Shown: one piece after another, positions 7,193 to 50,468 of the stretch
How positions within the stretch are numbered: the stretch's first letter is position 1
Layout of the letters: every line of letters starts with the position of its first letter
Assembly: GCF_947568905.1 (NCBI RefSeq)
Contig: NC_079170.1
Span: 49,166,001-49,230,000, forward strand
From: Ostrea edulis
Taxonomy: Eukaryota
DNA length: 64,000 nt
Reading direction: 5' to 3'
Made by a program: the position numbers and the translations under genes
Notes under the pieces: generated by a model
Databases searched by the model: none
What the model was told of the DNA's origin: nothing
What the model saw: only the letters and a program-made list of their open reading frames with translations

Positions 7193-9435
7193 GATTTGCA
7201 CATGCAGTAAAAATTGTCTCGCATTAGACTCCGAAATTAGATAAGAGAGAGAGATTCGCTGAAAAGAAATACACAATGATTGCTTCATGAATTTATCGCC
7301 CAGTTACAAAATTGAAAATAACGGAGGGGTATCGAAGAAGCAAATCCCAATTAAAGTACAATGTATAAAAAACCCTCCTGAAATAAAGAGCAATTAAGCG
7401 TTTCTCTGCTTCGTATATACCAACTTTCCGACTTATTTTTTCTTTCGATATCAAATATACTTTTATAAGTTACTGATTATCAAATTTTTAATAATGTATT
7501 AGTTGAGAAGTGCTAGATGAAAATTTTATTATATTTTATCATTCGGATGTTTTCCCTTTGGTTGTTCTGTTTTCATAATCAGGTAAGAAAAAGATATCTA
7601 CATTTAATCAATGGATGAATAATAAAATATACCAGAATCGAAAAACTGCAGTTCTACAGTTCTGAGTATATTCAGTCTAAACAAAGTATAGTGCATTTTT
7701 GTAAAAGTACTGAATGTATATTTCTCATGAAATTATCGCAAATTTCACATCAATTCACGCAGCAATCATTCACAAACAAATAGCAAATTTCATGTGTACA
7801 GTACTAGTATGTACAGTATTACATGTATAGATCTATACATGTACTTGTATACATATGGAAAAGCAGGGGGAAATGCATGCATGTTTCGTATCATATTCTA
7901 TAATATATGTTTGACCTTTCCATGATAAATCATGAATATTGATGCGTCATCTCGAGATATTATTTTGGAGTTTTCTTTGAATTTTCACAGTTGATAATCC
8001 AGACATTTTGTACTTCACTATCAAATTTCTGATTAAATAAGAAAGTTTCGTTCCACTCTTGTAAACGCACGTTTTCTTTATTCATGTTTGCCTCTCTATC
8101 AAAATCGATCCTTTAACTTTGGTGTTCCGAATGACAATATACCAAGACAAAAGACTGGACGCACGGTGAGCGCACGGTAAACGCTTTGTGAACGGTGAAT
8201 GAGTGGTGAACGGTGAACGCAAAACTGTGAAGAGTGAGCGCACGGAAAAACGGTAAAGTAGAACGTTTCAGGGACTGTATATACATATGGGCATTACTAA
8301 GTTATTGCAGCAATTAAAGAAGGGGGGGGGGTGTAAATCTTTGAACGAATCGGAAATCGAACCCGGGACCCTAGCTTACATTACTATTTAAGTTATCTAA
8401 CCACCGACCAAACCTGGCCGATATACATGTTCGAAGTATTTAGTAATACATGTATTACTGCGATATGAAATTTAAGGAGATATACTACATCATCATAACG
8501 GCCGACTGAATGAAAATATAACTATATTTATATATAGCAATATTTGTCATGTACAATTACTGTAGCAACCACCACCCATTTTTTAAAAATTAATTAGCGT
8601 GTTGACAGCTGATCTGTAGATCGCGGATTCAGGTCCAGCAATTGCTTTATTTTTTTTCCCGATCACTTTCATCTAAAAGAACATTTTTGACCATATAAAG
8701 TAAATTTGAAATAATTCAAAATATTAATTATTGTACGATCATGTAATGTATATCACTTTTCTCGTTGTGTTGTGTTATATTCCTCCTTGACCCGAAACTT
8801 TAACAAAATCTCATCGAGGAGATTAGAAAAAATGACAGAAACGTCGCATATGACCTTAGATATTATGTGAAAATATAAATTAACAGCAAAATGCCTGCAT
8901 ATCATGACATGTCAATTTCTACCCAGAGTTGTAGTTATTAAACGACTAGTTTACGTACGATTTACTTACTAAAAATAAAAAAGCAAAACCAAACTCGTTC
9001 ACTTTCCGATCTGTTTTCAGAATTTTTGAGACCCGACGGCACGGTGTGTAAGAATCGATTATGTGTATCGAAAGATGACACTTGGATATATATTCTATAA
9101 GTGTTGGCAACAGTGGAAAGTACAAAGGTAAAATATTTACGGTTCTATTTCTGAAATCATTGAATAACAAATTTATCAATATTTCGAATTTCCTCATATC
9201 ACATCCCCACGGCTTACACATTATATATGTATGACAATAAATCAGAACAGTTTCCCCGAGTGGCAATTTTGTAACCCGGTTACAATATTGAATTTCTGTA
9301 GAATAAATGGCATGGTTTATTTTTATGACCATGTACATGCATGCTAAATTCACTTTTCCAACTCCTAATCATATAGATCCGCCACTACTTCAGTTGTGTT
9401 ATGAGTAAAGCAGGTTGCATTTTGACCAGTTAATC

Positions 9436-10035
9436 ATGTTAATAGTAATTGACTTTACTCACAAGTAACTTATGTACAGGGAATATGTTTGTAAAATCCT
9501 TTTTATTAGACTGAAAAGGATGGTTATTCAGAGTTAATCATTATATCTCACAGGTCCCTGGGTCATAATACATGCATGAATACACAAATGTATAAGGTTA
9601 GATGTGTATTCATATATTGTGACCCAAGCACCTGTGTTATATCTTACAATTTTCTAATCTCGGCGAGATTCGTCGAGGTTGGATATTTGGACCGACACCT
9701 CTTCGGAAGAGGCGCAGCATCAGTCCAAATATCCAGCCTCGACGAATCTCGCTGAGATTAACTGTTTTTCTATTAATAAATGTTGCATGGATTCATGAAT
9801 ATTATTGGTCACCATTAAGAATATTAAACATACCATTTTCCTTTATTTTAGAGTAACTCGAAATGTGGATGCATATTGCTATCAGTGTAAAACATTGGTC
9901 CATTTGGTGCTAGACACTGAGGATTTTGAAATCTTGCCAGGAAAAATCATCCGACTTACAGGAACTTGTGTTCAGTGTAACGCTCTAATAATAAAAAATC
10001 ATATTCTTAAGGGATGGCACAGAGCTCTCTTTTGA
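9436..10035 (+). CDS. Putative 70-aa zinc-ribbon micro-protein (CxxC-x26-CxxC), copy A
   Basis: Proposed join(9436..9464,9852..10035): acceptor ttttgaccag|ttaatcATG, donor CAC AA|gtaact (phase 2), acceptor ttattttag|A GTA. Product MLIVIDFTHKVTRNVDAYCYQCKTLVHLVLDTEDFEILPGKIIRLTGTCVQCNALIIKNHILKGWHRALF. The same structure is intact in copy B. AATAAA at about 10274. The exon-1 assignment is inference. Confidence 0.5.
9549..9636. mobile_element. 88-bp hAT-type MITE
   Basis: TIR CACAGGT(C/G)C(C/T)TGGGTCA and 8-bp TSD TTATATCT (9541-9548, 9637-9644). Absent from the paralogous site near 45740-45755. The same TIR appears as a fragment at about 50200-50216. Confidence 0.8.
9655..9760. mobile_element. 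106-bp self-complementary element (TAATCTCG...CTGAGATTA), Crypton-like or foldback MITE
   Basis: About 38-bp near-perfect inverted arms and an inner hairpin CCTCTTCGGAAGAGG. Absent from the paralogous site in copy B. Confidence 0.6.
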
Positions 10036-11752
10036 CAAGAAGGGTTGTTGTCACTTGTGTGTATAGATGAATACGTCCAAAAGACTTGCAGAATGTGCAG
10101 AGAAGCTTAGTACATCGGTTTTTACCCTAGACACATTCAAGTCAAGACAATGTGATGCTTTGTAACTCCAGGAGGTCGTGCCAAAATAATGTTTTTAATT
10201 TATTTGTTGTATATTAATCAAATTTTACTTCAATGATGAGAACATTGTGCATGTTATGATTATTGATCAGGTAATAAACAATTTTTAAAATGTATTATAT
10301 GTCTCTTTTCTTTCTTAGTTTATGGAGACATTGATAGGTACCTGTCATTTACCAGAGAAAGATTGGATATCACAGGATTGTATGTACATGTACATAAGTA
10401 TATTGTTTTACGTCCCATTTGAGAATTGTCAACTCATATTGAGATTTGAGACCTCAGGCTCACCATCACTAGATAAATCCTGCAAATTTGACCTATAGTT
10501 GGTGATTATGTCCGCAGAAGTAAGACTTCTTTATCATGCCAATTGCATATCATGACACAGGACCTCCATTTTTGAAAGACATGTAACTCGCTCCTGGTGA
10601 AGGAAGAACCTATGTTAAATGTCTTATGTTAAATATAGTGTCAGGAATCAAGAAGCAATCCTGGGTCTCCAGCAAAGGGGTGCTGGAGTCCTGAAATTTA
10701 CAATTTATGTCTCCGTTGTCCCAATGATGCTTCAAACCAACTTTGAAAAGAATTGGACTGGTAGTTATTAAGAAGCTAAAAATGTTCAATTGTTAATGTA
10801 CGACGGATGACAACCAATTGCAATAGGTCACCTGAGTAAACTTAAAAAACAAAAACTTGTAATGAACCTTCCAATGGAAGCAGCTTTTATTGGAAACAAA
10901 TCAATAAACAAAAGCAATCAAAATTGCATAACAACTGGTACAATATTTTTAATACATGTATGTAACACCTGAACATATTGTACATTTTGCCTGTTAATAT
11001 ATTATCTTGCATGACTATTGTAATATTTTAGAAGAGGGACTTGTAAGTTGTCAGAATGTTCCCAATCCTTTTAAAATATGTTCAAAGCAAAACCTGAACA
11101 TACACTGTACTCCTAATTTCAAAGATTTATGGACCCTGTACACATTTGAAGGTGGTCATATGGATGAACTCTAGGCTGATCTAATACGCTTTCTTGGGAA
11201 TCGCATCTGAACATTTAAATTAGTGAGGCCTATATGCATGTACATTCTGATCCACATTTACATGTTGATTTTATGCAATGATGTACATCAACACACATTT
11301 CATTCTGTAACAAAGGTTTTCTTACATTTAAAACATTTGTAGTTTATAGGCCATAATTATAAAATTCTCTCTCAATTTACTGTGCATCAGTTGTCCATGA
11401 AACAAAGTGTAGCTATCAAGTAAATCTTGTCTTCACGATGAAGAGTTTGATGAACCCATTTTTTTAAGCACAGCACAACTCAACAATGCAGCAATTTGGT
11501 AAGGAAATATATGTTTACGCAACTGAAAATACATAACATATTGTAAAATCACCCAGGTATCACATTTTCCTGGTTACTATTAATAAATTGAATTCTGTTT
11601 CAAATCATATATGGTATCTGTAACATTGATGTTTTAAAACTAGTAGATACACTGTATATTATTTCTTGAAAATTCCACTCTGTCCTGTCCTTGATATTTT
11701 TTTCTTTCGTAAATCACAAGTGAAGTCATTTGTTCTGCTGTCTTCCGAGTTT

Positions 11753-44914: not shown

Positions 44915-45626
44915 ATATATATATATATATGAGCCGTCCCATGCAAAAAGGGCCCTTATGTATTTTGACGTCATAATGAGAAAAACGCTGGTAAAGATAA
45001 CGTCATTATTTGCAAGCTGCGTCTGTTACTTATGTTTACAATGCTGTCAATATATTTACGTGATTGTGTTTATATATCATCTGGAACGATGTCAACATGT
45101 ATCTGGATTTAACAAGAGGAACATGGACTTTTTAGAGGTGAGTTTTATATAAACAGACATAACAAATATTGTCTTGGTGACAATTAGGTCTTTAAGATAT
45201 TTCGATGCACAGGGTTTGGGATCTGCGCAGGTTGACGGGTACCGCAGGTGTACTTCAATCTCCTAGCACCATGTAACCAGCGCACTAGATCGCTCGACCA
45301 TCTAGGCAAGTCATTAAACTTGCTTTCGATGACGATGGAATTCTCGCCACGCTGTACATGTATATATATATGATAACCTAAGATAAGAGTGTCGCCTCTG
45401 AACCTTTGACTGGCAAATTTCAATCACTTGATGTCAAATGTATTGATAGGCATATATGTACCTGCACAGTAATGAATTTCTTTGTCAAAGAATAAGTGGC
45501 ATGGTTGATTTTTATGACCATGTACATGTACATGCTTGCTAAATTCACTCTTCCACTCCTAATATAGATCCGCCACTACTTCAGTTGTGTTATGAGTAAA
45601 GCAGATTGCATTTTGACCAGTTAATC

Positions 45627-46013
45627 ATGTTAATAGTAATTGACTTTACTCACAAGTAACTTATGTACAGGGAATATGTTTGTAAAATCCTTTTTATTAG
45701 ACTGAAAAGTTGCTAACTGGTGGTTATTCAGATTTAATCATTATTTCATATCTGACAATTTTCCTATTAAATGTTGCATGGGATCATGGATATTATAGGC
45801 CACCACTAACAATATACCATTTATTTTAGAGTAACTCGAAACGTGGATGCATATTGCTATCAGTGTAAAACATTGGTCCATTTGGTGCTAGACACTGAGG
45901 ATTTTGAAATCTTGCCAGGAAAAATCATCCGACTTACAGGAACTTGTGTTCAGTGTAACGCCCTATTAATTAAAAATCATGTTCTTAAGGAGTGGCACAG
46001 AGGTCTCTTTTGA
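45627..46013 (+). CDS. Putative 70-aa zinc-ribbon micro-protein, copy B
   Basis: Proposed join(45627..45655,45830..46013), with the same splice signals as copy A. Exon 2 has 8 substitutions in 184 nt, no indel or stop, and all four Cys kept (...CVQCNALLIKNHVLKEWHRGLF*). AATAAA at about 46316. Confidence 0.5.
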
Positions 46014-46347
46014 CAAGATTTTCTATTGGATCACGAAAATACAAGGGATGCTGTGTGTATAGATGAATGCATTCAGAACTCGACAGAAGACTTGCAGAAT
46101 GTGTAGAGAAGCTTACATCGGTTTTTACCCTAGAAACATTCAAGTCAAGACAATGTGATACTTTGTAACTTCAGGTGATCATGTCAAGATTATGCTTTTA
46201 ATTGAATAATTTATTTTCTGTATAATACCTGTACATAACATTAACCATATTTTACCTCAGTATTGAAAACAATTTGAATATTATAATGATGTGAGATTAC
46301 AATAATTCATGACCTAATAAACATGTTTTGAAAATGTACTATAAGAC

Positions 46348-46466
46348 TCTTTTTACGCCCCCCGAGATTGAAGATAGGGAGGGGGGTTGGGGGTGGGGGT
46401 GCATATTGTTTTTGTCCTGTAATTCTGTCATACTATGATACACTTTAATAACTTTTGAACAGTAAG

Positions 46467-46760: not shown

Positions 46761-46949
46761 TTTTTTTGTTCTGTACAGAAGAAAGATTAAATATCACTTA
46801 CTTGTTTTTTACTCATGTAGAGATGTCACCAGCTGTCGGTGAAATTTTGACTCATGATCGGCCCTACTAAACAAAAATTACTTCAGAATATGCTGGTAAA
46901 ATGTCTTTAACCGCTGTCCGTAGATGTGCTTACTTTACTTTAACCTTAT

Positions 46950-48559: not shown

Positions 48560-50468
48560 AGGGAAAGGCAACACTAACCACATAGTTTCTTTTATGAATA
48601 AAGTATCACTTACTGATATCGTAACTGACAGTCTTTAACTATAAAAATTCTAGCTTAACAATTAAATCAATATTAATCTATCATGTATTTTAAATTACCC
48701 GCCGCTAAGAGAGTGGCTATTGGAGTTTAATTTATGACGTCACACTGTCTATTCCGGTTTATTTCAACAGCAGCAATGTAAACATGACAAGTCACGAACA
48801 GTTAAGTTTCGAGCCGTATAGATTTGAGCCCATTCTTTCGCATGAAGAAATTGAGAAAAGACGCTTAGTCGAGTCGCAGATCAGGCAGACGGTACACGTT
48901 CTTCATACAAATGTCTCGAACCTCAACTTGTCATTACGCAAATGGTGGATCCACAGTTTACGTAGTCTTTTCCTTTCAAATGACTTGGTTGAGTCGGGAA
49001 TTTCGAAAAATCACCTTTTTTCACATTTCCCCTTCTCATTAGTGTAATTAACTGCTTGCCAGGAAGGCCTCAACCTATTTATTCGTTAAGATTTACAACA
49101 TGCACATCTTCGATGATCTCGCAGGTGTTTGGGTTCAACACCCCACCCCCGAATAAGCTACAATGTACATGAGTTGATAAGTTGATTTAATTAATTTTTT
49201 GTTGAAAATATTTCTAATGCATGTCAACAACGTCTTGCATACCCATAAAGTCCAAAATAATTCAAAATAAGCCCTTTTAAAAAAAATACCCTAGGCCACT
49301 GGTTATTATGCAAGGTGAAGATAACGAACAGTGATCAATCTCATAACTCCTACAAGCAATACAAAATAGATAGTTGGGCAAACACGGACCCCTGGACACA
49401 CCAGAGGTGAGATCAGGTGTCTAGGAGGAGTAAGTATCCCCTGTTGACCGGTCACACCCGCCGTGAGCCCCATATCCTGATCAGGTAAACGGAGTTATCC
49501 GCAGTCAAATCAGTGTGACAAGAACGGCTTAATAATCGGTATGAAACACGTCAGACAGCATTTGACCCAATGCGAGGTTGTATTGACAAACTAGATCGTT
49601 ATAACGACCATAGAATTTGCGAAATGCTGACTTCAATCGAGACTGTTGAAATCCCTGTACCATCAACTTGTTTGTCAGTAGCTTACCTCGATTTAAAAAA
49701 CTGACTATACCCAGAACAAGCATATCGAATCAGTTGAGATATATAAACACCATATGCAGGTGATAATGGAATATTGCTACATAAATGTGGGAAGTTGACG
49801 ATGGAGAAGCTGAAATCATCCCGTTTGTCATACAGTTGATTTGTCAGTTTGCCGTTAATGTCTACTTTCAATAAAATATCTAAGTATGAAGCAGAAGTGG
49901 ACGACTCTGTGGTGTCCTTTATTTCGAGCTCACAGGGATATATCAAATCGACATATGAATGAAAGCTATCATTCTTAATAGACAAAACGTCATCGATATA
50001 TCTAAAAGTCGAATTGAAGGTCACAGCGAGAGATTTTTTCTTCTCACGTAGTAGTTTTTGAATAAATTCTGCTTCATATGAATATAAAAACAGGTCAGCT
50101 AACAAAGGAGCACAATTCGTGCCCATAAGTTTAATATACATGTAATAACCAGTAAGGGTATTTTAAAGGACTTATTTTCGACTTTATGGAAGGGGGCTGA
50201 ACCCAAGCACCTGTGGGTGATCTTAGAATCTCATCAAAACCGGAACAGACGGTGTGACGTCAAAATTATTGATTTTTATGGTCTTGAATACAAAAGAGTT
50301 ACACATCATGGCAGCCTCTACATATCGTGGGAATTTCAATTTTTGACGTTTTCAAATTAGTACTGAAGCATATCTAGGCCATATATCAACAGAATTGTAT
50401 GACAAATCTTTATCATGTGATTAATCCTATCATATATCATGTAAAAATCTTTTGGATTGCCTTTCCCT
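48560..50468. mobile_element. Kolobok-like non-autonomous DNA transposon
   Basis: TTAA TSD (48556-48559, 50469-50472); TIR AGGGAAAGGCAA / TTGCCTTTCCCT; subterminal inverted repeat TGACGTCACAC.GTCT.TTCCGGTTTT (about 48735, about 50245). Removing it restores GTT GTT AAA CAC CAC in the host. Confidence 0.8.
49309..50126 (-). mobile_element. 5'-truncated Penelope-like element (RT C-terminal half plus 3' end)
   Basis: MGTNCAPLLADLFLYSYE...FRYIDDVLSI...SASYLDILL...LYDKRDDFSF; one frameshift near 49700; stop after DVFHTDY with no C-terminal GIY-YIG, which would fit a Naiad-type architecture (inference). Confidence 0.9.

Follow-up and report, generated by a model that had tools for sequence, protein, structure and literature searches.

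A transcribed, spliced two-exon micro-gene of Ostrea edulis predicted to encode a DUF5679-like zinc ribbon, and its partial duplicate

In a 64-kb stretch of the Ostrea edulis genome (RefSeq assembly GCF_947568905.1, contig NC_079170.1, positions 49,166,001 to 49,230,000 of the forward strand; hereafter the window, to whose positions all coordinates refer), a four-cysteine exon occurs in two places: in copy A, a gene at ~8970-10295, and in copy B, its duplicate at 45466-46353. We found that copy A is a real, transcribed and spliced two-exon gene, and modeling predicts that its product is a small one-zinc, four-cysteine beta-ribbon protein. On balance we favor, with moderate confidence, a joint reading in which copy A is a spliced gene, its ribbon protein is likely a remote relative of DUF5679 (PF18930), and copy B, a partial duplicate, is likely silent. 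DUF5679 consists of small C4 zinc-ribbon proteins from bacteria, archaea, phages, large DNA viruses and Polinton-type elements.

Twelve runs contain the stretch, and the RNA evidence came from assembled contigs of the seven among them that are RNA, or were guessed to be (X1-X7); the runs were picked with copy-A words, and rare forms may drop out of such contigs. Two of the seven runs (X1 and X4) each provided one contig, at depths of 162 and 168, that spans a 724-nt intron with GT..AG borders. These contigs align from 9003 or 9030 to 9125 and resume at 9850, and a shift of +2 places the junction at 9127^9852 with the GT..AG in register. Unique intronic or intergenic pieces in X1 reached a depth of 2-4, far below that of the spliced contigs. 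The other five runs (X2, X3, X5, X6 and X7) each gave one short contig within 10049-10251, upstream of the AATAAA at 10273 and with 0-3 changes relative to copy A; four of these five 3'-end runs are labeled as mollusc RNA-Seq samples. On the opposite strand there are frames of 62-71 codons, which were set aside because the splice signals and AATAAA indicate the + strand. The features of copy A are as follows.

8970..9127 (5' end approximate), + strand: exon 1, comprising the 5' untranslated region (UTR), codons 1-17 and the first 2 nt of codon 18, followed by the donor GT (9128)
9061..9078, + strand: upstream open reading frame (uORF) of 5 codons, its stop TGA overlapping the main ATG (ATGA)
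9075..9077, + strand: start codon of the 78-codon open reading frame (ORF), with A at -3
9128..9851, + strand: intron 1, 724 nt, phase 2
~9217-9280 and 9303-9404: dispersed-repeat pieces in intron 1, from genome matches
9372..9518, + strand: intronic block with 1 difference in 147 nt between copies A and B, holding the micro-exon 9430-9464 (ATG 9436, non-consensus donor 9465)
9549-9636 and 9654-9761: hairpin inserts in intron 1, missing from copy B, with all Rfam matches far below the gathering score
9852..10295 (3' end approximate), + strand: exon 2, 60 codons, stop at 10033-10035, then 3' UTR
9877..9978, + strand: C4 zinc-ribbon core, CxxC-x26-CxxC, with five predicted beta-strands
10273..10278, + strand: polyadenylation signal AATAAA, with the five short RNA contigs just upstream

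An earlier, sequence-only reading had proposed an intron-containing micro-gene here, and the GT..AG splice in RNA-type contigs bears this out. That reading had, however, made the micro-exon the first coding exon and the product 70 amino acids long, whereas the junction found is 9127^9852 and the copy A frame runs for 78 codons from ATG 9075. Neither junction that it had named for checking in RNA (9464^9852 and 45655^45830) was seen in the seven runs. No run showed a joint at 9464, and the bins 9341-9536 were uncovered, although in contig data absence is not proof. Because the contigs join 9127^9852 and none covers 9341-9536, the micro-exon lies inside the intron of the observed form. Its acceptor-ATG-donor arrangement is indeed identical in sequence between the copies (9430-9464 and 45621-45655), but it was not recovered as an expressed exon, and if it were spliced in between the two known exons, the main frame would end after 18 codons. 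The 5' end of exon 1 was set from 38 loose contig letters before 9003, which resemble 8985-9002 by eye. Within the intron, the insert at 9654-9761 forms an almost perfect inverted repeat, and RNA-type runs contain many partial matches to it; both hairpin inserts are likely small mobile elements.

The frame opened by ATG 9075 continues through the junction into the cysteine exon and is the longest sense ORF of the transcript model. The contig of the related organism behind X1 and X4 (organism A) aligned to the 237 coding nt of copy A without any indel. Its listed substitutions there number two, an I to V at 9090 and an L to V at 9985, both of them conservative; over 211 nt of UTR, the list holds 8 changes, with 3 indel events in addition. 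The tally for 9850-10174 contains three more differences that are missing from the list and may fall in the coding part, so that the number of coding changes lies between 2 and 5. A neighboring non-coding transcript at 10899-11697, likely the 3' UTR of a PHYH gene, differed from organism A at 39 of 739 positions; compared with it, the coding part gave Fisher p values of 0.001 (2 changes), 0.005 (3) and 0.047 (5), and compared with the gene's own UTRs, values of 0.009 to 0.40. The uORF, for which no change was listed in organism A, is a possible, putative translational brake.

We consider it improbable that the transcript is instead a spliced long non-coding RNA, or a tail-to-tail partner of PHYH, whose ORF is a decaying relic or a product of chance. 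The overlapping uORF, the missing sequence of the product in both protein collections searched, and an ATG frame of at least 78 codons in 135 of 5000 first-order Markov simulations (2.7%) of the 612-nt model would all fit such an RNA, as would listed changes that are only non-synonymous. Against this, the frame is preserved over the junction, coding indels are zero in both comparisons (A vs B and A vs organism A), the coding part changes less than the neighboring non-coding transcript, and the peptide is predicted to form a ribbon when modeled without an alignment. The copy A frame is thus probably protein-coding. Three points nevertheless pull the other way: X1 and X4 belong to one study, whose organism label differs from that of the DNA holders and whose RNA status was guessed; with all three unlisted changes coding, the contrast to the gene's own UTRs disappears (p 0.40); and the listed coding changes are two non-synonymous and none synonymous, so that the ratio of non-synonymous to synonymous rates is not estimable.

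Self-comparison of the window resolved the duplication into two direct matches, 9282-9547 with 45466-45747 and 9765-10309 with 45759-46353, in agreement with the ~1-kb duplicated segment described from the sequence. The features of copy B are as follows.

45466..46353, + strand: copy B, a 5'-truncated duplicate that begins inside intron 1
45621-45655, + strand: micro-exon homologue, identical to 9430-9464
45830-46013, + strand: exon-2 homologue, open, with 4 amino-acid changes, all past the last cysteine
46316, + strand: AATAAA, followed by a dispersed repeat; weak homology resumes near 46767-46826

As had been claimed from the sequence, both copies keep a cysteine exon of 60 codons without a stop, behind an acceptor AG (9850-51 and 45828-29), and an AATAAA ~240-300 nt past the stop codon. 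They have in common the motif AYCxxCK ... GTCxxC, with 26 residues separating the cysteine pairs. Indels have likewise gathered in the non-coding parts, with none in 184 coding nt but 19 gap events over 576 nt of aligned non-coding sequence (Fisher p 0.006). Across all six frames of the 64 kb, the pattern CxxC-x(8-35)-CxxC occurs only in copies A and B, and genome-wide DNA and protein searches (895 Mb, 52 contigs) returned only these two copies, both with open exon-2 frames. Exon 1 with the first 90 nt of the intron matched the genome at its own place only (40 of 63 candidates scored; the remaining hits were a repeat at the query end), and no second copy of exon 1 was found elsewhere in the window or within 20 kb on either side. 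As its homology begins inside intron 1, copy B lacks the start observed in copy A. The two copies had been taken for equivalent genes; on the present evidence this does not hold, since copy B is without exon 1 and a B-type RNA contig was present in none of the seven runs. A retrocopy origin of copy B was rejected, given that intron sequence is kept, a poly(A) tail is absent and weak homology resumes beyond the signal.

Divergence between the copies is uneven. The micro-exon and following intron showed 0 differences in 89 nt and the ribbon codons 1 in 130 (0 in ~100 non-synonymous sites), compared with 7/54 in the tail, 31/232 in the 3' UTR, and 8/144 and 11/111 in other intron parts. None of 5000 permutations equalled the two tracts of near identity (9372-9518 and 9843-9983). 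The first includes the end of a dispersed repeat that has 13 other genomic matches; a small nucleolar RNA or microRNA in this block was considered and dropped, with no Rfam match and no stable fold (z -0.9).

This unevenness would fit a reading in which both copies are functional, with copy B (perhaps also a minor isoform of copy A) starting in or near 9372-9518, the micro-exon ATG giving 70 residues, and selection acting on both tracts. The likeness of the ribbon codons and the micro-exon block tells against a silent copy B, because a dead copy would need gene conversion to explain it. In addition, A/B conservation stops just past the last cysteine, copy B retains an acceptor, an open frame and AATAAA, and organism A agrees with copy A at the tail and 3' UTR sites, which implies that copy B has been diverging for some time. 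In the other direction, the junction, cover of the block and a B-type contig were each found in none of the seven RNA-type runs, with the limits given above for such contigs and for the picking of the runs; the block contains a repeat end and 54 nt of intron; and the micro-exon donor has neither the -1 G nor the +5 G, which makes for a weak site. Gene conversion would likewise account for two tracts of ~145 nt, the copies being 36 kb apart. We regard function of both copies as unlikely, and a silent copy B with gene conversion of two tracts as somewhat ahead.

The sequence-only reading had likened the peptide to DUF5679-type ribbons, and this proved to be the closest named family by motif, phmmer, hhalign, profiles and folds. 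Seeds for DUF5679 were obtained by scanning viral contigs for YCxxC..GTCxxC, which gave at least 240 loci, 68 in-frame rows and 65 distinct stretches. When phmmer ranked these 65 motif-bearing stretches by the peptide, all 12 Pfam-verified DUF5679 members fell in the top 16, of which 15 were Pfam-scanned, and hhalign of the peptide against DUF5679 gave 83.7% over 41 columns. On a profile of the 12 verified members the peptide scored 22.9 bits, a value reached by 18 of 2000 anchor-fixed shuffles and exceeded by 2 of 52 other motif-bearing stretches; on a profile with 120 more members it scored 21.8 bits, which 6 of 2000 such shuffles reached. Both knuckle triplets are those of the family, AYC or GYC in 120/120 and GTC in 114/120 of the top members. 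The spacer between the cysteine pairs is 26 residues, compared with 24 in 120/120 top members, and lengths of 26 and 27 occur in two Pfam-verified members (L176 and L057). By comparison, a second knuckle followed none of the 82 other genomic AYCxxCK sites examined (of 188 sites, 100 were listed, and 18 of those were left out as duplicates or because of a stop in frame).

Structure prediction points in the same direction. With the exon-2 peptide alone, AlphaFold produced one model with a predicted local distance difference test (pLDDT) score of 68, in which five strands place the cysteines in two hairpin turns. A DUF5679 alignment model reached a pLDDT of 86 with the same strand order. Among 48,161 PDB chains, the first three matches were the same and in the same order for both models: Cren7 (4r55_A), NrdR (9fzf) and NrdR (7p37). 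For Cren7 the peptide gave Z 5.1 (root-mean-square deviation 2.3, 49 aligned residues) and the DUF5679 model Z 4.5 (2.2, 46), although a Z of ~5 can reflect a common arrangement, which tempers this support. In BFVD, 50 viral models were listed as matches of the peptide; 14 of them were shared with the DUF5679 model, among them five of its best six, and these five include the peptide's rank 1 and its two highest identities (28%). In the Foldseek check proposed earlier, no match of the peptide in PDB or BFVD reached an E-value of 0.001 or better.

Several results argue against kinship with DUF5679. The confident fold appeared in one of five AlphaFold runs, the other four having pLDDT scores of 36-44. 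The core has a net charge of -1, whereas 120 DUF5679 members average +6 with a minimum of 0; the basic core of the family is therefore not present, although the whole 78-codon frame has an isoelectric point of 9.1. A Pfam scan left DUF5679 unlisted at E up to 10, below the curated 27-bit cut-off, and returned only weak ribbon matches (DZR, 15.4 bits; DUF7837, 15.1 bits); NCBIfam gave no match and PHROGs one family at E 0.06. An ungapped 40-column model like Pfam's scored 9 bits and a 43-column model 16 bits, single-knuckle genomic junk scored up to 19.5 bits on the profile, and the seeds had been chosen by the peptide's own motif. In 5.8 billion proteins no homologue was found at 33-105 amino acids, and at 106-2000 amino acids two candidates yielded no match. 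Among 1.84 billion protein representatives there were three hits, all repetitive or unrelated. The missing homologues do not imply restriction to a lineage, because the gene's own product is also missing from the collection. Other searches with the peptide were also negative: one locus in viral contigs, a 22-residue chance match without cysteines; 0 of 160 metagenome candidates; five phage-record hits (best E 4); and one PDB sequence hit (E 0.1). With a DUF5679 member as the query, the ESM Atlas yielded three leads, whose scores of 0.77-0.80 are too low to be useful.

An alternative is that copy A is a real zinc-ribbon micro-gene, old in eukaryotes or arisen de novo in one lineage, that converged on DUF5679 without any virus. 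The lack of a Pfam hit and a score that moves between 9 and 23 bits with the profile fit this explanation, as do the non-basic core and the failure to find a donor in the genome; other ribbons (DZR, DUF7837) also score 15 bits, and those of Tim15, ZPR1, Rpp21 and PNGase are also among the structure matches. Convergence would have to account, however, for the agreement with DUF5679 of both flanking triplets and of the hairpin-turn position, for shuffle tests with p values of 0.003-0.009, and for ranked structure matches common to the two models. We consider it the less probable explanation, and true homology of the peptide to DUF5679 fairly probable. As the Pfam cut-off and the basic core are not reached, the peptide is filed as DUF5679-like and not as a member.

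Viral capture of copy A would be a plausible origin. Domestication from a virus or mobile element had been suggested from the sequence, and what supports it is that DUF5679 is common in animal Polinton-type elements: a DUF5679 protein homologous to poxvirus AMEV120 is reported from >40% of coral polintovirus regions (10.1101/2023.10.06.561300), and more than one in three mavirus-related elements are listed with the domain (PMC13215967), while passages of PMC8502044 and 10.1101/2025.04.19.649669 hold nothing further on DUF5679. The oyster genome has at least 209 pPolB matches (77 scored of 259 candidates), and since many of these loci have long open frames, donors of the Polinton class are present. 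What the suggestion lacks is a donor in the genome and a match above the cut-off. The PF18930 search of the genome gave nothing above the cut-off (best E 1.1) and did not pick up this gene, and six Maverick elements, apparently of one family, contained no DUF5679-like frame; both results count against the kinship as well. One viral DUF5679 member searched against the genome had a best E of 2.2, and PF08398 had no match, with no control match either. In a high-copy Maverick/Polinton-type family (e.g. L272-L273, L275-L276, L281-L282, L284-L285 and L287-L288), pPolB frames of ~1330-1344 codons are followed directly by a RING-type cysteine ORF; more small cysteine-rich ORFs are present, and no DUF5679-like gene.

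The origin that we consider most likely, although at somewhat less than an even chance, is that the gene descends from a DUF5679-type ORF captured long ago from a Polinton/Maverick or a large DNA virus, and that the upstream exon and intron came later. Intron gain in domesticated transposon- or virus-derived host genes is documented for mammals (PMC3369469). The fuller scenario, in which a mollusc ancestor made the capture, the exon, intron and uORF were gained, an overlooked host micro-protein family resulted, and copy B is now recruiting a new start exon from the old intron, appears doubtful as a whole.

For copy A as a spliced gene with a ribbon product, we propose the following course. Transcription would begin near 8970, the 724-nt intron would be removed, and polyadenylation would follow the AATAAA at 10273 (the splice and the 3' cover are observed, the poly(A) site presumed). 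Ribosomes may reach ATG 9075 past the short overlapping uORF. Exon 1 would contribute 17 aromatic/basic residues and exon 2 the whole ribbon, in which a single Zn2+ is predicted to be gripped by two CxxC knuckles, which would support a three-stranded, Cren7/NrdR-type sheet. The peptide has no catalytic motif. We favor a role as a binding module: most likely, at a nearly even chance, the sheet and the basic ends would contact nucleic acid or a nucleoprotein complex, as is usual for type-2 zinc ribbons, and a plain protein-protein adaptor role is close behind because the core is without the positive charge of DUF5679. Kaur et al. (2018; PMC5906684) derive Cren7 from zinc ribbons and note that ribbons of type 2 occur in proteins that bind nucleic acids.

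The neighbors of copy A are a BTB gene and the first of two PHYH genes, the latter arranged tail-to-tail with copy A; there are no mobile-element genes at the locus. No Polinton genes (pPolB, integrase, capsid, ATPase) were seen around the copies among the window's 54 frames of >=90 amino acids (by inspection; seven were scanned), and none of the pPolB matches listed (150 of 209) fell at the locus. The earlier statement that no transposase or polymerase lies nearby stands for copy A. At distances of 7-14 kb from copy B, in contrast, there are a reverse transcriptase (60387-61082) and a DDE_3 transposase (52979-53716), both unrelated to it. The BTB-domain gene (PF00651; 5391-6730, + strand) has two exons and a His-rich C-terminal end, and X1 pieces cover it at a depth of 2-4 only. 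The PHYH (phytanoyl-CoA dioxygenase) genes are tandem paralogues (12724-21805 and 29761-35341, - strand) with six matching exon pairs, and a PHYH intron holds tandem arrays of 27-nt units (15383-16861) and 19-nt units (17409-18314). We speculate that copy B could be a remnant of the tandem events that made these paralogues. Further along, a CBM_14 chitin-binding multi-exon gene (51976-56376, + strand) contains a Tc1-like DDE_3 transposase element on the opposite strand (52979-54086, - strand), and broken pieces of reverse-transcriptase-type retroelements occur at 59830-61471 (+ strand) and 49683-50162 (- strand).

DUF5679 is a widespread family, in prokaryotes and in animal Polinton-type elements, to which no function has been assigned. 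If the joint reading is correct, a spliced, expressed and apparently constrained version in a mollusc host would be a tractable handle on its role, and copy A would be among the few candidate takeovers of an accessory gene, as opposed to a transposase or envelope gene, from Polinton-type elements; it would also be a gene of fewer than 100 codons that is missing from two protein collections of very large size. Should the likeness to DUF5679 be convergent, the locus would hold an ordinary orphan micro-gene and a partial duplicate. In a literature search that most subscription papers lay outside, the passages found on DUF5679 described no host gene, and nothing was found on oyster microproteins of this kind.

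Compared with known systems, copy A shares with domesticated transposon and virus genes a domain on one exon, an intron near the 5' end, a single locus and a host-type poly(A) signal. It differs from them in that no donor element and no remnants of flanking elements were found and in that the captured part would be an accessory micro-gene and not a transposase, gag or env. Cren7 (4r55) and the N-terminal ribbon of NrdR (9fzf, 7p37) are the best fold matches of the model, but with 8-16% identity, no PDB sequence match and no basic DNA-binding face by charge, this is a likeness of shape only. Unlike DUF5679, the oyster gene has a 17-residue extension on a separate exon, a spliceosomal intron and AATAAA, a spacer of 26 and not 24 residues, a neutral and not a basic core, and a cellular BTB-PHYH locus without Polinton genes. 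What it shares with DUF5679 are the AYCxxCK and GTCxxC knuckles, the beta-hairpin between them, the predicted fold and the top structure matches.

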